A DNA stretch of 64,000 bases, from the sequence record PZ154895.1; one strand, given 5' to 3'. Both the position numbers and the translations under genes were made by a program. This document shows, piece after piece, positions 2,885 to 46,317 of the stretch. This stretch comes from a phage. A model generated the notes under the pieces. The model was not told the DNA's origin. It saw only the letters and a program-made list of their open reading frames with translations, and ran no database searches. Position 1 is the first letter of the stretch, and every line of letters starts with the position of its first letter.

Positions 2885-3202
2885 ATGACTGATAAACCCG
2901 AAATTAATGATGAAGTGGAAAAGCTTATTTCTTCTATTGAAGAAAAGAACCGTCTTGAAGCAGAAAGAAAAGCAAATAAGTTATTGTCTAAAAATAAACG
3001 CGAACTGAACCGTCTTTATAAGCACGCTCAGATTGCAGCTGAAAACAATAATTTCGCTCAATACGAATATGCTATCAAGAAAAGTCGGGATATTCTAAAA
3101 CAGCCATATAACGATGAACTCATTAGTATTCTTTGGAAGACTACTAGATCGCAGATTGAGGATATGATTGATGCTTACACGCGTAAAATTCAAGCGTCTT
3201 AA
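2885..3202 (+). CDS. hypothetical coiled-coil protein, 105 aa
   Basis: ORF starting 1 nt after upstream stop. Confidence 0.5.
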   Translation: MTDKPEINDEVEKLISSIEEKNRLEAERKANKLLSKNKRELNRLYKHAQIAAENNNFAQYEYAIKKSRDILKQPYNDELISILWKTTRSQIEDMIDAYTRKIQAS

Positions 3203-3374
3203 AATTAATGCAGGATTTACTGAATCTTTGAATGGTCATCTTTGCGTGAAAATTTCTGAAAAAGAATACCATGATAGTTCAATTAAAGAAGTTAATCCTC
3301 CTATTGTAAGAGCAGACCCTAATATGAAAGTGTGGGTTGATTCCTATCAAGTCAAAAAATGGTGGCAGCTGTGA
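3168..3374 (+). CDS. hypothetical protein, 68 aa
   Basis: Six-frame ORF overlapping upstream ORF by 35 nt. Confidence 0.3.
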   Translation: MMLTRVKFKRLKINAGFTESLNGHLCVKISEKEYHDSSIKEVNPPIVRADPNMKVWVDSYQVKKWWQL

Positions 3375-3377
3375 AAG

Positions 3378-3551
3378 ATGAACACCCAGACTTCTGAAAT
3401 AGATTATAATAAAATTCGTTCCTCTAAAGTAGAAATGATGAGGCGCTTTAAAGAGTCTCATGATAAAGCTAAAGCAGAAGGAACTATAACACATAAACGT
3501 ATAAAATTTAGAAGCTCTAATGAGCCTCTGTATGGCGTATTATGTGGATAG
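3378..3551 (+). CDS. hypothetical basic protein, 57 aa
   Basis: ATG 3378 to TAG 3549-3551, immediately followed by terminator; not in ORF track (under 60 aa). Confidence 0.3.
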   Translation: MNTQTSEIDYNKIRSSKVEMMRRFKESHDKAKAEGTITHKRIKFRSSNEPLYGVLCG

Positions 3552-3570
3552 GAGCTTCGGCTCCTATATT
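3551..3570 (+). terminator. intrinsic terminator GGAGC-TTCG-GCTCC
   Basis: 5-bp stem, UUCG loop, T/A-rich tail. Confidence 0.6.
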
Positions 3571-3617
3571 GCTTTACAAATTTTTGGTAAAATAAACCAA
3601 AACAATGAGGATATTAA

Positions 3618-4820
3618 ATGAAAGTATGCATTTTTATGGCTCGAGGTCTTGAAGGTTGTGGCGTAACTAAATTTTCTCTTGAGCAACGTGATTGGTTTAT
3701 TAAAAATGGTCATGAAGTAACTTTGGTTTATGCTAAAGATAAATCATTTACTCGTAATTGCGCACATGATTATAAGTCATTTTCAATTCCGGTTTTATTG
3801 GCAAAAGAATACGATAAAACACTTAAGTTGGTAAATGATTGTGATATTCTAATTATCAATTCAGTTCCTGCTACTTCAGTAGAAGAAGACACTATTAATA
3901 ACTATAAAAAAATTATTGATAACATTAAACCTTCAGTTCGTGTTGTAGTTTATCAGCATGACCATTCTTCTCTTTCTTTGCGCCGAAATTTGGGATTAGA
4001 AGAAACTGTTCGTCGAGCTGATGTTATTTTTAGTCATTCTGATAATGGTGATTTTAATAAAGTTCTGATGAAAGAATGGTATCCGGAAACTGTTTCTCTG
4101 TTTGATGATATTGAAGAAGCACCGACCGTATATAACTTTCAGCCTCCTATGGATATTGCGAAGGTTCGATCAACTTACTGGAAAGATGTTTCTGAAATTA
4201 ACATGAATATCAACCGTTGGATTGGTCGTACTACTACATGGAAAGGCTTTTATCAGATGTTTGATTTTCACGAAAAACATCTTAAACCTGCAGGACTAAG
4301 TACTATTATGGAAGGTCTGGAACGTTCTCCAGCGTTCATTCCTATTAAAGAAAAAGGAATTCCATACGAGTATTATCGTCTTCATCAAGTAGACCAAATT
4401 AAAATTGCTCCTAATTTGCCAACGCAAATTCTCGACCGTTATGTAAATAGCGAAATGCTTGAACGCATGAGTAAATCCGGATTTGGTTATCAGCTGAGTA
4501 AATTAGATAAAAAATATCTACAACGTTCTTTAGAATATACTCATCTCGAGCTTGGTGCATGCGGAACAATTCCAGTATTTTGGAAATCTACTGGCGAAAA
4601 TTTAAAATTCCGTGTTGATAATACTCCGTTAATTTCTCATGATAGCGGTATCGTTTGGTTTGATGAAAATGACATGGAATCAACATTTGAGCGTATTAAA
4701 GAACTGTCATCTGACCGAGCTCTTTATGACCGTGAACGCGAAAAAGCTTATGAATTTTTGTATCAGCATCAAGATTCAAGCTTCTGCTTTAAAGAACAGT
4801 TTGACATTATTACAAAATAA
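3618..4820 (+). CDS. a-gt: DNA alpha-glucosyltransferase
   Basis: 400 aa; near-identical along its length to T4 alpha-gt as recalled (ends ...SSFCFKEQFDIITK). Confidence 0.95.
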   Translation: MKVCIFMARGLEGCGVTKFSLEQRDWFIKNGHEVTLVYAKDKSFTRNCAHDYKSFSIPVLLAKEYDKTLKLVNDCDILIINSVPATSVEEDTINNYKKIIDNIKPSVRVVVYQHDHSSLSLRRNLGLEETVRRADVIFSHSDNGDFNKVLMKEWYPETVSLFDDIEEAPTVYNFQPPMDIAKVRSTYWKDVSEINMNINRWIGRTTTWKGFYQMFDFHEKHLKPAGLSTIMEGLERSPAFIPIKEKGIPYEYYRLHQVDQIKIAPNLPTQILDRYVNSEMLERMSKSGFGYQLSKLDKKYLQRSLEYTHLELGACGTIPVFWKSTGENLKFRVDNTPLISHDSGIVWFDENDMESTFERIKELSSDRALYDREREKAYEFLYQHQDSSFCFKEQFDIITK

Positions 4821-6877: not shown

Positions 6878-7064
6878 CATTAACGATGAATTCATAGCAA
6901 ATATTGATTACACCGAAGAAGATTCTAGATATGTTGGAATAATTTATATCACATCAAAAGCAGCACAAGGTGTTGTTTGCATGGCTGAATTTGATGAATA
7001 CTTTTTAGATTATGATGATATGATAGAATGGTCTAAAAGATACATTAAAAGGAATCTTTTGTGA
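6849..7064 (+). CDS. hypothetical protein, 71 aa
   Basis: Track ORF 6801 trimmed to ATG 6849; stop overlaps gene 46 start. Confidence 0.4.
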   Translation: MHTVKFSTFDINDEFIANIDYTEEDSRYVGIIYITSKAAQGVVCMAEFDEYFLDYDDMIEWSKRYIKRNLL

Positions 7065-8749
7065 AGAATTTTAAACTAAACCGAGTTAGGTATCAAAATA
7101 TAATGTCAGTAGGTGGAAATCCTATTGACATTCAACTAGATAAGGTTCAAAAAACTCTTATTACTGGGCGAAATGGTGGTGGTAAGTCTACTATGTTAGA
7201 AGCCATCACATTTGGGCTTTTTGGCAAGCCATTTCGTGATGTAAAGAAAGGTCAATTAATAAACAGCACAAATAAGAAAGAACTTTTAGTTGAACTGTGG
7301 ATGGAATATGATGAGAAAAAGTACTATATCAAAAGAGGACAAAAACCAAACGTTTTCGAAATCACCGTTAACGGTACACGTCTTAATGAATCTGCCAGCA
7401 GTAAAGATTTCCAAGCAGAATTTGAACAGCTTATCGGAATGTCATATGCCAGTTTCAAGCAGATTGTTGTCCTTGGTACAGCAGGGTATACCCCTTTCAT
7501 GGGTTTGTCGACCCCTGCGCGAAGAAAGCTTGTGGAAGACCTGCTCGAGGTAGGAACATTAGCTGAAATGGATAAGCTTAATAAAGCACTAATACGTGAA
7601 TTAAATTCACAAAACCAAGTGCTTGATGTTAAAAAAGATAGTATTATCCAACAAATTAAAATATATAATGATAACGTTGAACGCCAGAAAAAATTAACTG
7701 GTGATAACCTTACTCGTCTGCAGAACATGTATGATGATTTGGCAAAAGAAGCTAGAACGTTAAAATCGGAAATAGAAGAAGCTAATGAAAGATTAGTTAA
7801 TATTGTTTTGGATGAAGACCCGACTGATGCATTTAATAAAATCGGTCAAGAAGCATTTTTAATTAAATCAAAAATTGACTCGTATAATAAAGTCATTAAT
7901 ATGTATCACGAAGGTGGATTATGTCCAACCTGTTTGTCACAATTAAGTTCCGGTGATAAAGTTGTTTCTAAAATTAAAGATAAAGTTTCTGAATGCACGC
8001 ATTCATTTGAACAGCTTTCAACACATCGTGATAATTTAAAAGTTCTTGTTGATGAATACCGAGATAATATTAAAACCCAGCAGACGTTGGCAAATGATAT
8101 TCGCAATAAAAAGCAATCCTTAATCACGACGGTAGATAAAGCTAAAAAAGTTAAAGCGGCTATAGAAAAAGCATCATCTGAGTTTATTGACCATGCTGAT
8201 GAAATAGCACTGCTTCAAGAAGAACTTGATAAAATTGTTAAGACAAAAACTAATTTAGTAATGGAAAAATACCACAGAGGAATTTTGACTGATATGCTCA
8301 AAGATTCTGGTATTAAAGGTGCTATTATTAAAAAGTACATTCCATTATTTAATAAGCAGATTAACCATTATCTTAAAATAATGGAAGCGGATTATGTGTT
8401 TACATTAGATGAAGAATTTAATGAAACAATTAAATCCCGTGGTCGTGAAGATTTTAGTTATGCTTCATTTAGTCAAGGTGAAAAAGCACGAATTGATATT
8501 GCTCTTTTATTTACTTGGCGTGATATTGCTGAAAAAGTTTCAGGTGTTAAAATAAGCTGTTTATTTCTTGATGAAGTATATGACGGTGCATTTGATGCTG
8601 AAGGTATTAAAAATGTAGCTAAAATTTTAGATGGTTTGAAGGATACCAACTTCTTCATAATTTCGCATAAAGACCATGACCCACAAGAATATGGTCAGCA
8701 TATTCAGATGGAAAAAGTTGGTAGATTTAGTTTAGCTAAGATTAGCTAG
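7061..8749 (+). CDS. 46: gp46 recombination nuclease subunit (SbcC/Rad50-like ATPase)
   Basis: 562 aa, GTG start; Walker A GRNGGGKST, zinc hook CPTC, coiled coil, Walker B LFLDE. Confidence 0.93.
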   Translation: MKNFKLNRVRYQNIMSVGGNPIDIQLDKVQKTLITGRNGGGKSTMLEAITFGLFGKPFRDVKKGQLINSTNKKELLVELWMEYDEKKYYIKRGQKPNVFEITVNGTRLNESASSKDFQAEFEQLIGMSYASFKQIVVLGTAGYTPFMGLSTPARRKLVEDLLEVGTLAEMDKLNKALIRELNSQNQVLDVKKDSIIQQIKIYNDNVERQKKLTGDNLTRLQNMYDDLAKEARTLKSEIEEANERLVNIVLDEDPTDAFNKIGQEAFLIKSKIDSYNKVINMYHEGGLCPTCLSQLSSGDKVVSKIKDKVSECTHSFEQLSTHRDNLKVLVDEYRDNIKTQQTLANDIRNKKQSLITTVDKAKKVKAAIEKASSEFIDHADEIALLQEELDKIVKTKTNLVMEKYHRGILTDMLKDSGIKGAIIKKYIPLFNKQINHYLKIMEADYVFTLDEEFNETIKSRGREDFSYASFSQGEKARIDIALLFTWRDIAEKVSGVKISCLFLDEVYDGAFDAEGIKNVAKILDGLKDTNFFIISHKDHDPQEYGQHIQMEKVGRFSLAKIS

Positions 8750-9458
8750 GTTTATATTTACAGTTATCATTATGCCATCTTGATAAATTTCCGAAAGTGG
8801 TAACTTTACCACAATGGACGCAAGTACCAGTCTTTTCAGTTTTCTTGCGTCCATTTGGATTTTTCTTGCAGAAATTTCTATGCGCTGCGATAACGCATTT
8901 CTTGCCTATCATTCCACAGAATTCGCAGGATGTTTCTTCAAGAACGATTGCTTTAAGCCCGTTTGAGATATTATTTCTGTGTTCTTTAGACATTGGTGGT
9001 CTAACTTTAGGATTAGGGTGATTTGGACAGTTATCAAAATGCCAACGATTCATATTCCCGCTTAATCCAGACTTACCGCAATGAGGACAAGTTAGTCTTG
9101 CTTTATTAGCTACTGCATCAGACATTTTCTTTCGTGTCTCCTGGGAGAATTCTTTGTTCTTTTCTATTTCCCAGAGTTTACGACGAATCCAACCGAAAGT
9201 TTTATTGTTGCGTTTAGCGTATTTCGTGGAAACTGTCATCATGTTAGCAGCATAGACTAATTTTGGTTCAGAAGGATAAATTTTTACTAAAAGTTGATGA
9301 GCTACATAGTGCTCTTCTGGCGTTAAATCTACTAAGTTTGAAGCATCATCACTACCGTTTAAACAGCGTGGTATAATGTGATGAGATTCAGTATAGCAAT
9401 CAAGTTTTCGAGATTTAGCATTAGAGATTAACTTTTCATAAATTAGTTTATAATTCAT
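8742..9458 (-). CDS. HNH homing endonuclease with three C-terminal CxxC...W..DNC zinc-finger repeats
   Basis: 238 aa; HNH motif ESHHIIPRCLNGSDDASNLVDLTPEEHYVAH; opposite strand to flanking genes. Confidence 0.7.
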   Translation of the reverse strand: MNYKLIYEKLISNAKSRKLDCYTESHHIIPRCLNGSDDASNLVDLTPEEHYVAHQLLVKIYPSEPKLVYAANMMTVSTKYAKRNNKTFGWIRRKLWEIEKNKEFSQETRKKMSDAVANKARLTCPHCGKSGLSGNMNRWHFDNCPNHPNPKVRPPMSKEHRNNISNGLKAIVLEETSCEFCGMIGKKCVIAAHRNFCKKNPNGRKKTEKTGTCVHCGKVTTFGNLSRWHNDNCKYKPS

Positions 9459-9509
9459 AACATATCCTTTTGATACAGCGAGTGATAAACATATTTATAC
9501 GGAGGAACT

Positions 9510-9701
9510 GTGGCAGAATATTTAACTGGACAGCATCTATTAACTATTCCTGAAATAAAACGATATATTCTGAGAAATAATTTTTCTAATGAAGAGCATA
9601 TAGTTACTGAATCTATGCTTAAGAATGCATTTAAATCAGAATATACGAAAATAATGTCCAACAGGAATGAAGCTTGGACTGTTACTGATTATTATGACTA
9701 A
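9510..9701 (+). CDS. hypothetical protein, 63 aa
   Basis: ORF with GGAGGAA RBS. Confidence 0.45.
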   Translation: MAEYLTGQHLLTIPEIKRYILRNNFSNEEHIVTESMLKNAFKSEYTKIMSNRNEAWTVTDYYD

Positions 9702-9710
9702 AGGTGTATT

Positions 9711-10100
9711 ATGACTAAAATTACTGTGAATTATACTGTTGATGTAAAAGATATTCAGCCAAAACACGTGCGTTCTGAATCAAATCCGCAAAACCAAAAT
9801 AAAATTCGTCGAGCATGGGTTTTGTCTCTTTCTGATAACGCAATGGAAGTTATTCAGAATAAAATTAAATCTGCACCTGCTCGTCATGCGTATTATGAAG
9901 CTATCGATCGTGAAGTGAGTGATAAATGGATTGAACTAATGCGCAAACATACGACAGAATCTCTAAATGCTGGCGCTAAATTTATTATGACTTCATGCGG
10001 TGAACGCCTTGAAGATGATTATTGCGGTAATGCAGATGAACGTCTAATTGTTGCTGCTCAAATTGTTGCGGAAACAATTGCTGCTGATTTTAATCGTTAA
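9711..10100 (+). CDS. rpbA: RNA polymerase binding protein RpbA (by position and size)
   Basis: 129 aa ORF directly upstream of gene 45, as in T4. Confidence 0.6.
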
Positions 10101-35897: not shown

Positions 35898-36074
35898 ATG
35901 CCAATGTATGATTATAAATGCCAATCCGAAGATTGTGGGCATGAATATGAAAAAATTAAAAAGATTTCTGAACGAGAAAATGATGTTTGCCCTAAATGTC
36001 ATCGTTTGTCTACTCGTCGGCCTTCTGCTCCTAAGCATGTGAATGGTGGATTTTACGACTTACTTAAAGGGTGA
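35898..36074 (+). CDS. small zinc-ribbon protein (CxxC-N-CxxC), 58 aa
   Basis: MPMYDYKCQSEDCGHEYE...CPKCH; not in track. Confidence 0.45.
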   Translation: MPMYDYKCQSEDCGHEYEKIKKISERENDVCPKCHRLSTRRPSAPKHVNGGFYDLLKG

Positions 36075-36076
36075 TT

Positions 36077-36448
36077 ATGTTTAAAATCGGTAAGAAATAT
36101 CGTGTTCGCGAAGGTGAAGAAAAGAAATATCTACTTTCTGCTAGTAATAGGAATAGTTCTATTAATGCTGTAATATTGACTAGTGAATTTATCGTTGAAG
36201 ATATGAAAGGTCATAATGTTACAATGATTAGTACAGCATCTGGAAATGATGGAAAAGTTCTTCATAGTCTGCGGAGTAGTGTTCTAATTTATGATGAAGA
36301 ATTTGACTTCTTCAAAGAAGTTTCCGAAGATTTTGATTTTGAATGCACTATCACTATGAAATCTGGCGACCCTCTTTCTTTTACAGTTAAAGATGAAAGA
36401 AGTCGCTTGAGAATTATTAGTCTTCTTCAAGCCATTAAATTTGAGTGA
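36077..36448 (+). CDS. hypothetical protein, 123 aa
   Basis: Track ORF 36071 trimmed to ATG. Confidence 0.45.
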   Translation: MFKIGKKYRVREGEEKKYLLSASNRNSSINAVILTSEFIVEDMKGHNVTMISTASGNDGKVLHSLRSSVLIYDEEFDFFKEVSEDFDFECTITMKSGDPLSFTVKDERSRLRIISLLQAIKFE

Positions 36449-36713
36449 AATTATGAAATATGTTAATCGTTCTATCGCGGCAATAGTATTAGCAGTATCT
36501 TTAGTAGGATGTACTGATGCTGATAATGCAACCAAAGTTCTGTCTTCAAGTGGTTTTACTAATATTGAAATCACTGGATATAATTGGTTCGGTTGCTCTG
36601 AAAATGATTTCCAACATACTGGATTTCGTGCTATTGGACCTACCGGGCAGAAAGTAGAAGGAACAGTATGTTCTGGTCTTTTCTTCAAGGATTCGACTAT
36701 CCGTTTTAAATAA
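36441..36713 (+). CDS. putative lipoprotein, 90 aa
   Basis: Signal peptide with lipobox LVGC. Confidence 0.5.
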   Translation: MSEIMKYVNRSIAAIVLAVSLVGCTDADNATKVLSSSGFTNIEITGYNWFGCSENDFQHTGFRAIGPTGQKVEGTVCSGLFFKDSTIRFK

Positions 36714-36732
36714 AAGGCCTTCGGGCCTTTAG
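36714..36732 (+). terminator. intrinsic terminator AAGGCC-TTCG-GGCCTT
   Basis: Directly after lipoprotein ORF. Confidence 0.75.
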
Positions 36733-36782
36733 CTTTATGATTACCGGAGTATAATATTCCCGAAACCAAACGAGGATAAGTG

Positions 36783-38600
36783 ATGATTAAGAATGAAATT
36801 AAAATTCTGAGCGATATTGAACATATCAAAAAGCGTAGCGGCATGTACATTGGTTCTTCTGCTAATGAAATGCATGAGCGCTTTCTGTTTGGTAAATGGG
36901 AAAGTGTTCAGTATGTACCTGGTCTTGTTAAGCTTATTGATGAAATTATCGATAACTCAGTAGATGAAGGTATTCGTACTAAGTTTAAATTCGCAAATAA
37001 AATTAATGTTACTATTAAAAACAATCAAGTAACAGTTGAAGATAACGGTCGTGGTATTCCGCAGGCGATGGTTAAAACACCTACTGGTGAAGAAATTCCT
37101 GGTCCAGTTGCTGCATGGACTATTCCAAAAGCAGGTGGTAACTTCGGTGATGATAAAGAACGCGTCACTGGTGGTATGAACGGTGTTGGTTCTAGTTTAA
37201 CTAACATTTTTTCTGTGATGTTTGTCGGTGAAACTGGTGATGGTCAAAATAATATTGTAGTTCGTTGTTCAAACGGCATGGAAAATAAATCGTGGGAAGA
37301 TATTCCTGGAAAATGGAAAGGAACTCGCGTTACTTTCATTCCTGATTTTATGTCATTTGAAACTAATGAGCTATCTCAAGTTTATCTTGACATTACACTG
37401 GATCGTCTCCAGACACTTGCAGTAGTTTATCCTGATATTCAATTTACATTTAATGGTAAAAAGGTTCAGGGTAATTTTAAGAAATATGCACGCCAATATG
37501 ATGAACATGCTATTGTTCAAGAACAAGAAAATTGTTCTATTGCGGTCGGTCGTTCACCTGATGGTTTTCGTCAATTAACATACGTCAATAACATTCATAC
37601 TAAGAATGGTGGCCATCATATTGACTGTGTTATGGATGATATTTGTGAAGACCTTATTCCACAAATCAAACGTAAATTCAAAATTGATGTAACTAAAGCA
37701 CGTGTTAAAGAATGCTTGACTATCGTTATGTTTGTTCGTGATATGAAAAACATGCGATTTGATTCTCAAACTAAAGAGCGTTTGACTTCTCCATTTGGTG
37801 AAATCCGTAGTCATATTCAGCTTGATGCTAAAAAGATTTCACGTGCTATTTTGAATAATGAAGCAATTTTAATGCCAATTATTGAAGCTGCATTGGCTCG
37901 TAAATTGGCGGCAGAAAAAGCAGCTGAAACTAAAGCAGCTAAAAAGGCCTCTAAAGCTAAGGTTCATAAACATATTAAAGCGAATCTTTGTGGTAAAGAT
38001 GCTGACACTACTCTTTTCTTGACTGAGGGTGATTCTGCTATCGGATATCTTATTGATGTTCGTGATAAAGAACTTCATGGCGGTTATCCATTGCGTGGTA
38101 AAGTTCTCAACAGTTGGGGTATGTCATATGCTGATATGCTTAAAAACAAAGAACTGTTTGATATTTGCGCAATCACTGGATTAGTTCTTGGTGAAAAAGC
38201 CGAAAACTTGAATTATCATAATATTGCTATTATGACTGATGCTGACCATGATGGTCTAGGAAGCATTTATCCTTCTCTGCTCGGATTTTTTAGTAATTGG
38301 CCAGAATTGTTTGAACAAGGAAGAATTCGCTTTGTCAAAACTCCTGTAATCATCGCTCAGGTCGGTAAAAAACAAGAATGGTTTTATACAGTCGCTGAAT
38401 ATGAGAGTGCCAAAGATGCTCTACCTAAACATAGCATCCGTTATATTAAAGGACTTGGCTCTTTGGAAAAATCTGAATATCGTGAGATGATTCAAAATCC
38501 AGTATATGATGTTGTTAAACTTCCTGAGAATTGGAAAGAGCTTTTTGAAATGCTCATGGGAGATAATGCTGACCTTCGTAAAGAATGGATGAGCCAGTAG
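36783..38600 (+). CDS. 39: gp39 topoisomerase II large subunit, uninterrupted (GyrB-like, includes the part encoded by gene 60 in T4)
   Basis: 605 aa single ORF; GHKL ATPase and TOPRIM motifs; C-terminus ...MGDNADLRKEWMSQ. Confidence 0.93.
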   Translation: MIKNEIKILSDIEHIKKRSGMYIGSSANEMHERFLFGKWESVQYVPGLVKLIDEIIDNSVDEGIRTKFKFANKINVTIKNNQVTVEDNGRGIPQAMVKTPTGEEIPGPVAAWTIPKAGGNFGDDKERVTGGMNGVGSSLTNIFSVMFVGETGDGQNNIVVRCSNGMENKSWEDIPGKWKGTRVTFIPDFMSFETNELSQVYLDITLDRLQTLAVVYPDIQFTFNGKKVQGNFKKYARQYDEHAIVQEQENCSIAVGRSPDGFRQLTYVNNIHTKNGGHHIDCVMDDICEDLIPQIKRKFKIDVTKARVKECLTIVMFVRDMKNMRFDSQTKERLTSPFGEIRSHIQLDAKKISRAILNNEAILMPIIEAALARKLAAEKAAETKAAKKASKAKVHKHIKANLCGKDADTTLFLTEGDSAIGYLIDVRDKELHGGYPLRGKVLNSWGMSYADMLKNKELFDICAITGLVLGEKAENLNYHNIAIMTDADHDGLGSIYPSLLGFFSNWPELFEQGRIRFVKTPVIIAQVGKKQEWFYTVAEYESAKDALPKHSIRYIKGLGSLEKSEYREMIQNPVYDVVKLPENWKELFEMLMGDNADLRKEWMSQ

Positions 38601-38629
38601 TTTACTTTACCACAAGGATGTGGTATAAT
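38600..38629 (+). promoter_or_regulatory. early promoter
   Basis: TAG-GTTTAC fusion with gene 39 stop; 18 nt; TGTGGTATAAT. Confidence 0.55.
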
Positions 38630-38654
38630 TAATTGGGTAAATGAGGATATTGAA

Positions 38655-38858
38655 ATGAAATCATATAGAGTAAATTTAGAACTTTTTGATAAAGCAGTTC
38701 ATCGAGAATATAGAATCATTCAACGCTTTTTCGATATGGGAGAAGCCGAAGAGTTTAAAAACCGCTTTAAGGACATTAGAGATAAAATTCAATCCGACAC
38801 TGCAACTAAAGATGAACTACTAGAAGTTGCTGAAGTTATTAAACGCAATATGAATTAA
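38655..38858 (+). CDS. hypothetical protein, 67 aa
   Basis: ORF directly upstream of rIIA. Confidence 0.45.
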
Positions 38859-38868
38859 TGAGGAAATT

Positions 38869-41046
38869 ATGATTATCACCACTGAAAAAGAAACAATTCT
38901 TGGTAATGGTTCTAAATCAAAAGCATTTAGCATCGCAGCAAATCCTAAAGTATTTAAAATTCTATCATCTGATTTGTATACAAACAAGATTCGTGCAGTA
39001 GTCCGTGAATTGATTACCAACATGATTGATGCCCATGCTCTCAATGGAAATCCTGAAAAATTTATCATTCAAGTTCCAGGACGATTAGATCCGCGATTTG
39101 TTTGTCGAGATTTTGGTCCGGGTATGAGCGATTTTGATATTCAGGGTGATGATAATTCTCCTGGGTTGTATAATTCATACTTTAGTTCATCTAAGGCTGA
39201 ATCTAACGATTTCATTGGCGGATTTGGTTTAGGTTCTAAATCCCCGTTTAGTTATACTGATACATTCAGTATTACTTCATATCATAAAGGCGAAATTCGC
39301 GGTTATGTAGCTTACATGGATGGTGACGGTCCGCAAATTAAACCTACATTCGTAAAAGAAATGGGTCCAAATGATAAAACTGGTATTGAAATCGTAGTTC
39401 CAGTTGAAGAAAAAGATTTTAGAAACTTTGCTTATGAAGTTTCTTATATCATGCGACCATTCAAAGATTTAGCTATCATTAACGGTCTTGACCGCGAAAT
39501 TGATTATTTTCCGGATTTTGATGATTATTACGGCGTAAATCCAGAAAGATACTGGCCAGATCGCGGTGGATTGTATGCTATCTATGGCGGCATTGTTTAT
39601 CCTATCGAAGGTGTTATTAGAGATCGTAACTGGTTAAGCATCCGCAATGAAGTGAATTACATTAAGTTTCCAATGGGTTCACTTGATATTGCTCCATCAC
39701 GCGAAGCTCTTTCATTAGATGATCGTACTCGTAAAAATATTATTGAGCGTGTTAAAGAGCTTAGTGAAAAGGCATTCAATGAAGATGTAAAACGATTTAA
39801 AGAATCTACATCTCCTCGTCATACATACCGTGAATTGATGAAGATGGGATATTCTGCTCGAGATTATATGATTAGTAATTCAGTCAAATTTACGACTAAA
39901 AATCTGTCATATAAGAAGATGCAGAGCATGTTTGAACCTGATAGTAAACTATGCAATGCAGGAGTTGTGTATGAAGTAAATCTTGACCCTCGACTGAAAC
40001 GCATTAAGCACAGCCATGAAACTTCAGCCGTTGCATCAAGTTATCGTCTGTTTGGTATTAATACGACAAAAATTAATATTGTTATTGATAATATTAAAAA
40101 TCGTGTTAATATTGTCCGTGGATTAGCACGTGCATTAGATGATAGCGAATTTAATAACACCTTAAATATTCATCACAATGAACGCCTTTTGTTTATTAAT
40201 CCGGAAGTAGAATCACAGATTGATTTGCTTCCTGATATTATGGCAATGTTTGAAAGTGATGAAGTTAACATTCATTATTTGTCAGAAATTGAGGCTTTAG
40301 TTAAAAGTTATATTCCAAAGGCAGTAAAAAGTACAGCTCCTCGTCCTAAAACTGCTACTGCATTTAAGTTTGAAATTAAAGACGGGCGTTGGGAAAAAGA
40401 GGAACTGTTTACACTTACGTCAGAAGCAGATGAAATTACTGGTTATGTAGCATACATGCATCGTTCTGATATTTTCTCTATGGATGGTACTACATCGCTT
40501 TGTCATCCATCTACGAATATTTTGATTCGTATGGCTAATCTTATTGGCATTAATGAATTTTATGTTATTCGTCCGCTTTTACAGAAAAAGGTAAAAGAAC
40601 TTGGTCAGTGCCAATGTATTTTTGAAACTCTACGTGATTTATATGTAGATGCTTTTGACGATGTAGATTATGATAAGTATGTAGGTTATTCAAGTTCAGC
40701 TCAGCGATATATTGATAAAATTATTAAGTATCCTGAACTTGATTTTATGATGAAATATTTCAGTACAGATGAAGTTTCCGAAGAATATACTCGCCTTGGT
40801 AATATGGTTAGTTCATTGCGGGGCGTATATTTCAATGGTGGAAAAGATACCATCGGTCATGACATCTGGACCGTAACTAATCTTTTTGATGAATTATCAC
40901 GTAATGCTTCAAAAAACAGTGATAAAATGGTTGCTGAGTTTACCAAGAAATTCCGTATTGTTTCCGACTTCATCGGTTATCGCAATTCTTTAAGTGATGA
41001 TGAAGTTTCCCAAATCGCTAAAACTATGAAGGCCCTTGCGGCCTAA
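38869..41046 (+). CDS. rIIA: rIIA protein
   Basis: 725 aa; [20 protein letters not shown]... matches T4 rIIA; same length. Confidence 0.95.
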
Positions 41047-44988: not shown

Positions 44989-46317
44989 ATGCAACTGAAT
45001 AATCGCGATTTAAAAAGTATCATTGATAATGAAGCATTGGCTTATGCTATGTACACGGTTGAAAATCGTGCTATTCCAAATATGATTGATGGATTTAAGC
45101 CAGTCCAACGATTTGTTATTGCTCGAGCTCTTGATTTGGCGCGAGGAAATAAAGATAAGTTTCACAAACTTGCTTCTATTGCAGGTGGTGTAGCGGACCT
45201 TGGATATCATCATGGTGAAAACTCTGCGCAAGACGCGGGGGCTTTGATGGCTAATACTTGGAATAATAACTTTCCTTTGTTAGATGGTCAAGGAAACTTT
45301 GGTTCTCGTACCGTTCAAAAAGCAGCGGCAAGTCGTTATATTTTTGCTCGTGTAAGTAAAAATTTCTATAGCGTATATAAAGATACTGAATATGCTCCGG
45401 TACATCAAGATAAAGAACACATTCCTCCTGCTTTCTATTTGCCTATTATTCCTACTGTTCTTCTTAATGGTGTTTCCGGTATTGCAACTGGTTATGCAAC
45501 TTACATTCTTCCTCATAGTGTTTCTTCTGTCAAGAAAGCTGTATTGCAAGCTCTTCAAGGAAAGAAAGTAACTAAACCGAAGGTAGAATTCCCAGAATTT
45601 CGCGGTGAAGTCGTTGAAATTGACGGTCAATATGAAATTCGTGGAACGTACAAGTTTACTTCACGAACTCAAATGCATATCACTGAGATTCCGTATAAGT
45701 ATGATCGTGAAACTTATGTGAGTAAAATCTTAGACCCGCTTGAAGATAAAGGCTTCATTACGTGGGATGATGCTTGCGGTGAGCATGGTTTTGGCTTTAA
45801 AGTTAAATTCCGCAAAGAATATTCTTTGAGCGATAACGAAGAAGAACGCCATGCAAAAATCATGAAAGACTTCGGGTTGATTGAGCGTCGTTCCCAAAAT
45901 ATTACAGTCATCAACGAGAAAGGAAAGTTACAAGTTTACGATAACGTAGTTGATTTAATTAAAGACTTCGTTGAAGTTCGTAAAACTTATGTCCAAAAAC
46001 GAATTGATAACAAAATCAAAGAAACTGAATCAGCATTTCGTTTAGCCTTTGCCAAGGCGCATTTCATTAAGAAAGTAATTTCAGGTGAAATTGTTGTGCA
46101 GGGTAAAACTCGTAAAGAACTGACCGAAGAACTTTCTAAAATTGAGATGTATTCTTCTTATGTTGATAAACTAGTCGGAATGAATATTTTTCATATGACT
46201 TCCGACGAAGCAAAGAAACTTGCTGAAGAAGCTAAAGCTAAGAAAGAAGAAAACGAATATTGGAAAACTACTGATGTAGTTACAGAATACACCAAAGATT
46301 TAGAGGAAATCAAATGA
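44989..46317 (+). CDS. 52: gp52 topoisomerase II medium subunit (GyrA-like)
   Basis: 442 aa; ...IDGFKPVQRFVIARA... active-site region. Confidence 0.93.
   Translation: MQLNNRDLKSIIDNEALAYAMYTVENRAIPNMIDGFKPVQRFVIARALDLARGNKDKFHKLASIAGGVADLGYHHGENSAQDAGALMANTWNNNFPLLDGQGNFGSRTVQKAAASRYIFARVSKNFYSVYKDTEYAPVHQDKEHIPPAFYLPIIPTVLLNGVSGIATGYATYILPHSVSSVKKAVLQALQGKKVTKPKVEFPEFRGEVVEIDGQYEIRGTYKFTSRTQMHITEIPYKYDRETYVSKILDPLEDKGFITWDDACGEHGFGFKVKFRKEYSLSDNEEERHAKIMKDFGLIERRSQNITVINEKGKLQVYDNVVDLIKDFVEVRKTYVQKRIDNKIKETESAFRLAFAKAHFIKKVISGEIVVQGKTRKELTEELSKIEMYSSYVDKLVGMNIFHMTSDEAKKLAEEAKAKKEENEYWKTTDVVTEYTKDLEEIK

Follow-up and report, generated by a model that had tools for sequence, protein, structure and literature searches.

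Positions 36783–38600 of the window (the whole 64-kb stretch of phage DNA that was analysed) hold an intact and predicted functional gene 39, which we consider, at a probability of about 0.96, to be the parental allele that was never invaded by the MobA/bypass cassette known from T4. No evidence contradicting this reading was present in the data. The gene on which the analysis is centred is the following.

36783–38600, plus strand: gene 39, large (GyrB-like) subunit of a type IIA topoisomerase, 605 residues plus stop codon

In the ORF listing the open frame extends from 36780 to 38600 on the plus strand and would encode 606 residues if started at its GTG, and the ATG that lies one codon past that GTG, at 36783, gives a protein of 605 residues. 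A GAGGA (36771–36775) is situated 7 nt upstream of this ATG, an 1818-nt coding sequence with the same start is annotated in T2, T6 and REP4, and the gp39 chain of T6 in PDB 8ylu begins MIKNEIK, the same N-terminus as that predicted from the start at 36783. A check of all 605 codons found no internal stop codon, and the C-terminus of the listed protein is ...MGDNADLRKEWMSQ. A previous reading made from the letters of the DNA (the sequence-only reading) had proposed a single unbroken frame of this length with this same C-terminal ending, and both proposals were borne out.

Gp39 has all of the sequence features by which the B subunit of a type IIA topoisomerase is recognized, namely a GHKL ATPase, a transducer QTK loop, a TOPRIM domain and a gp52 partner. 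Three Pfam families were matched in it: HATPase_c (residues 47–149, E 2e-9), DNA_gyraseB (residues 250–384, E 1.4e-13) and TOPRIM_C (residues 519–604). The individual motifs and the gene of the partner subunit are located as follows.

36942–37196, plus strand: GHKL ATPase motifs of gp39, placed by motif positions and Pfam HATPase_c; N-box EIIDNSVDE (residues 54–62), G1 DNGRGIP (residues 87–93) and G2 GGMNGVGSS (residues 130–138)
37764–37784, plus strand: transducer QTK loop SQTKERL (residues 328–334), within Pfam DNA_gyraseB
38025–38039, plus strand: TOPRIM catalytic Glu motif EGDSA (residues 415–419)
38238–38255, plus strand: TOPRIM metal-binding motif DADHDG (residues 486–491)
44989–46317, plus strand: gene 52, GyrA-like partner subunit, 442 residues; Pfam DNA_topoisoIV, E 1e-76, residues 27–429

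Both halves of the TOPRIM domain, EGDSA and DADHDG, are on the one gp39 chain, which thus has a complete TOPRIM domain, whereas in T4 the DADHDG motif is on gp60, just before the 50-nt coding gap. In phmmer comparisons, gp39 matched human TOP2B (E 1e-59), ParE (E 1e-47) and GyrB (E 3e-36). The layout of GHKL ATPase, transducer and TOPRIM is common to gp39, to GyrB and ParE and to the N-terminal half of eukaryotic topoisomerase II, although gp39 represents a compact, phage-specific form relative to those bacterial and eukaryotic enzymes. The topoisomerase of T4 relaxes DNA and does not supercoil it. The gp39 of T6 has been shown to relax DNA (Xin et al. 2024, PMC11461880), and since the protein encoded here is identical to that biochemically active T6 protein at 603 of 605 residues, we infer that it too is enzymatically active in ATP-dependent strand passage. 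As in the T6 enzyme, whose structure has been solved, gp39 and gp52 would together form a topoisomerase of the two-subunit type, which would use ATP to drive the passage of DNA strands through each other in phage replication. Translation of gene 39 would be ordinary and colinear, without a ribosome hop.

High levels of similarity to the undivided genes of related phages were found throughout gene 39. Among solved structures, the best match was T6 gp39 (YP_010067157.1; PDB 8ylu), which aligned over residues 1–605 and differs at only two positions (D173 here, T in T6; Q526 here, H in T6); five further entries besides 8ylu also matched, from a cryo-EM set that includes 8yo1. The gp39 of T2 (BBF63163.1) is identical at 604 of 605 residues, with F70 here being L in T2. 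Identity at the nucleotide level is lower, 96.3% to T2 and 96.6% to T6, and the differing codons are nearly all synonymous (synonymous to non-synonymous, 64:1 versus T2 and 58:2 versus T6). Such near-purely synonymous variation points to strong purifying selection over the whole ORF, junction included, which is the signature of a functional gene. The gene order 39.1, 39, rIIA.1, rIIA is common to this phage, T2 and T6. These comparisons confirm the earlier assignment of the locus to a T2/T6-type arrangement, as the same 1818-nt gene is followed by rIIA.1 and rIIA in all three phages and its product differs by one residue from that of T2 and by two from that of T6. Escherichia phage REP4 (OQ174503.1) has 100% nucleotide identity to the window over 36300–39300, and its counterpart to gp39 (WBY53128.1) is annotated as "DNA topoisomerase II large subunit".

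In the T4 record NC_000866 the order of this region is 39, mobA (a pseudogene), 60.1, 60 (annotated with a 50-nt bypass), rIIA.1 and rIIA. The 50-nt translational bypass of T4 gene 60 was reportedly described by Huang in 1988. Blastn returned two colinear blocks between the window and T4, the first pairing 36451–38200 with T4 5661–3911 and the second pairing 38265–39299 with T4 2793–1759, and between them T4 has ~1.1 kb in place of 64 nt (38201–38264) here. The flanking genes are the same and so is the enzyme. At the protein level, residues 1–473 match residues 1–473 of T4 gp39 (98.5%), and residues 472–605 match residues 27–160 of T4 gp60 (95.5%), a direct alignment that substantiates the earlier view of one ORF covering both the 39 and the 60 parts of T4. 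Two features mark the junction.

38201–38264, plus strand: 64-nt segment that is replaced by the MobA element in T4-type genomes, delimited by the ends of the blastn blocks and by fine alignment
38253–38258, plus strand: point equivalent to the T4 bypass, GGT (G491) followed contiguously by CTA (L492)

Viewed by codon, the divergence from T4 begins after GAA AAA GC (E471, K472, A473), which places the left breakpoint after nucleotide 1418 of gene 39, within the A473 codon, and the right end at S494. Over the 300 nt to either side, 286 and 295 nt are identical to T4. Homology to T4 returns at N477–G491, but there T4 is recoded, with 33 of 45 nt identical to the element-encoded "homR", and the 9 nt that follow G491 are recoded as well (4 of 9 identical). 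At the bypass point, 50 nt separate GGA from TTA in T4, whereas here GGT passes directly to CTA. The T4 element encodes a 43-residue tail of gp39, MobA, a new gp60 N-terminus of ~30 residues, the recoded homR and the 50-nt gap, and MobA is an intact ORF of 272 residues in T4T. Manning & Atkins (bioRxiv 10.1101/2022.08.31.505936) described the MobA element of the E. coli clade as deleting 64 nt, its 5' insertion falling at AA 466–473 and its 3' end lying 9 nt past G491, and the junctions and segment length found here match theirs in detail.

The state of mobA differs among T4 records. In the reference T4 record its annotation consists of a 114-nt fragment and, separately, the "60.1" ORF (2971–3767), and an intact MobA of 272 residues is present in the same place in T4T (2971–3789) and in about 40 other records. 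The element of the reference record is 11 nt longer than the elements with an intact MobA and only 98.7% identical to them. MobA has been published as a pseudogene in laboratory T4, a statement that the reference record fits.

Searches for each part of the cassette gave no sign of it at the locus. The gene is not split into two ORFs, there being no second, gene 60 ORF and no 50-nt gap at this position. With T4T MobA as the query, tblastn of the 64-kb window returned nothing significant at the gene 39 locus, its sole match nearby being at chance level (E 2.2, 37151–37011, opposite strand). Neither the 43-residue gp39 tail (CTE) nor the 30-residue gp60 N-terminus (NTE) was found by tblastn in the window, where their best E values were 2.4 and 0.28, respectively, at unrelated positions. 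Blastn-short searches of the same 64 kb gave no match to the T4 50-nt gap sequence at E ≤ 1, and for the whole T4 element only chance matches of 13–17 nt. Together with the T4 alignment, these searches uphold the claim that a separate gene 60, a bypass element and mobA are lacking from the locus. It had also been noted by eye that no take-off or landing GGA codons were to be seen, which was only partly correct: nine GGA codons are present in gene 39 (residues 176, 180, 421, 466, 493, 501, 513, 557 and 593), and that of G493 comes two codons after the bypass-equivalent point, but the ORF contains no GGA followed by a stop and no take-off/landing pair around a gap. The codon that matches the T4 take-off GGA is GGT here (38253–38255). 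The broader claim that the bypass system is absent from this genome holds for the 64-kb window, and for the remainder it depends on the finding of Manning & Atkins (10.1101/2022.08.31.505936) that the topoisomerase large-subunit gene is the only insertion site of MobA elements.

A MobA paralogue was identified away from gene 39. It is an HNH ORF of 238 residues at 8742–9458 on the minus strand, 38% identical to the N-terminal HNH region of MobA (tblastn E 1.6e-16, 9458–9111), which matched phrog_655 "homing endonuclease" (E 8.6e-69) and had no Pfam match. Thus, a Mob-family endonuclease is encoded in this genome, although at a site other than gene 39. The ORF is antisense between gene 46 (7061–8749, SbcC-like) and rpbA (9711–10100), with an 8-nt overlap at the 3' end of gene 46. 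Its gene is present in about 60 relatives and absent from REP4. The region 8500–9800 is closest to phage JE01 (99.8%), and over 1–25000 the best records are only 96–98% identical, none exceeding about 98%. The possibility that the whole window is REP4 was rejected, given the absence of the HNH gene from that phage and the identity of at most about 98% to any record over 1–25000. No single record of the phage collection corresponds to the whole window. By these sequence comparisons, the 64-kb window is from a mosaic Tequatrovirus genome, its mosaicism being of the kind ordinary in that genus.

The uninterrupted form of gene 39 is the majority state among sequenced relatives. A 171-nt query spanning the site identified the intact colinear arrangement in 453 phage records of a 50,697-record collection, T2, T6, RB3 and RB68 among them, and the T4 element was found in 43 records of the same collection, 41 of which have it at full length. 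About 90% of sequenced relatives are without the MobA/bypass insert. A 3-kb query gave 485 colinear records, a number that probably includes T4-type records as gaps of up to 2 kb were joined. The uninterrupted gene is the "parental" allele of the literature (Manning & Atkins 2022; Bonocora 2011), and MobA with the bypass has been described as a mobile cassette that invades gene 39 (Xin et al. 2024, PMC11461880; Edgell et al. 2010, PMC2988022; Bonocora et al. 2011). With 453 intact versus ~43 occupied sites, the counts show once more that the well-known T4 arrangement is derived and in the minority. An uninterrupted gene 39 in T-even phages has already been described and is the textbook state of a well-studied gene. 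Our results have little significance beyond correct annotation, for which we suggest a single "DNA topoisomerase II large subunit (gp39, T2/T6 type)" with no programmed bypass.

An undivided gene might also have arisen in ways other than by never having been invaded. In a hit-and-run history, a MobA element would once have been inserted and later lost, with the single ORF recreated. Secondary fusions after loss do exist in other clades, such as an Aeromonas phage clade (Manning & Atkins), and the mosaic nature of this genome, in which the gene 39 segment, unlike the rest, has 100% identity to REP4, would also suit such a history. However, reported revertants keep both the CTE and the NTE, neither of which was found here by tblastn, and gp39 has exactly 605 residues, as in T2 and T6. 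In its 64-nt segment the gene resembles T2 (63 of 64 nt), as opposed to its 33/45 and 4/9 matches to the T4 element-derived region, and the flanks are 95–98% identical to T4 with the sharp drop occurring only inside the T4 element. We consider a revertant very improbable, and it was rejected on the lack of a CTE and NTE and on the 64-nt segment being of the parental T2 type and not of the element type.

Loss through replacement of the whole segment from a parental phage would look the same as a gene that had never been invaded. There is an equally slight chance that an element was once present and was purged through gene conversion with a parental phage as the donor, in which case the REP4-identical patch would be the conversion tract and the locus would be evidence that the element is actively removed in the E. 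coli clade. Least probable of all, at a level we regard as negligible, is an artefact of assembly or sequencing in which a real genome with a T4-type insert or gap was collapsed or mis-assembled. No supporting points for an artefact were found, and against it are the same colinear arrangement in 453 independently sequenced records, the intact frame with its almost purely synonymous variation relative to T2 and T6 across the junction, and the parental 64-nt segment of T2 type, which would not remain after the collapse of a 1.1-kb insert.

With gene 39 read as a parental allele that was never invaded, the segment at 38201–38264 is probably an unoccupied and MobA-sensitive homing site. This prediction is made because the segment is identical at 63 of 64 nt to the T2 target (61 of 64 for T6), and MobA reportedly nicks and converts the T2 site (Bonocora 2011, as cited by Manning & Atkins). 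The sole difference from T2, a C here for a T in T2, is at 38201, the extreme 5' edge of the segment; an effect of this substitution on recognition by MobA is possible in principle but unlikely. Occupied genomes are protected from MobA by the 50-nt insert (Manning & Atkins, 10.1101/2022.08.31.505936). In a co-infection with a MobA-positive phage, for example T4T, we would expect nicking of the site and its conversion into the split 39/mobA/60 form. This phage is accordingly a predicted recipient of MobA homing, not a donor, in mixed infections with T4-type phages.

Several features were identified to either side of gene 39.

36713–36730, plus strand: hairpin AAAGGCC-TTCG-GGCCTTT, terminator-like, upstream of gene 39
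36732–36755, plus strand: middle-promoter-like GCTT-N14-TATAAT, after the hairpin and upstream of gene 39
38600–38629, plus strand: early-promoter-like GTTTAC-N14-GTGGTATAAT, by match to the T4 consensus only
38655–38858, plus strand: rIIA.1, 67 residues; Pfam T4_RIIA1, E 2.2e-33; phrog_1683
38869–41046, plus strand: rIIA, 725 residues, annotated as RIIA lysis inhibitor in REP4, T4 and T6

The sequence-only reading placed an early promoter and rIIA directly after gene 39. A promoter-like site is indeed present, beginning on the final base of the gene 39 stop codon, but rIIA.1 (38655–38858) lies between it and rIIA, at the same position as in T4, T2 and T6. Neither this correction nor that concerning the GGA codons alters the overall interpretation. 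The promoter scan gave TTTACT-17-TATAAT for this site (10/12, with TG), and OL960580, a 97.6%-identical relative, has an annotated promoter at the corresponding position; the count of promoter-like sites in the region (seven found versus 10.2 expected from shuffles) is not significant. Upstream of gene 39, OL960580 has an annotated terminator and an annotated middle promoter at positions equivalent to the hairpin and the middle-promoter-like site, although the terminator scan of 36400–39000 called none, the hairpin included. The annotation of OL960580 also has a middle-promoter-like site, GCTT-N13-15-TATAAT, inside rIIA.1 and upstream of rIIA (locus 2665–2689, equivalent to 38665–38689).

The gene immediately upstream of the hairpin is a homolog of gp39.1 (36441–36713, plus strand; phrog_902, E 3e-37), whose N-terminus, ...MKYVNRSIAAIVLAVSLVGC, resembles by eye a lipoprotein signal peptide with a lipobox. 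It is called an "XRE family transcriptional regulator" in the T2 and T6 records, which seems doubtful, and its length is given as 65 residues in the original T4 record and 86 residues in T4T. Between 39.2 (35898–36074) and 39.1 there is an ORF of 125 residues (36071–36448, plus strand) with no counterpart in T4 or T4T, which matches phrog_622 and, weakly, a goF-like family. The position is a variable slot beside gene 39, being occupied by a coding sequence of the same size (372 nt) in T6 and by one of a different size in T2.
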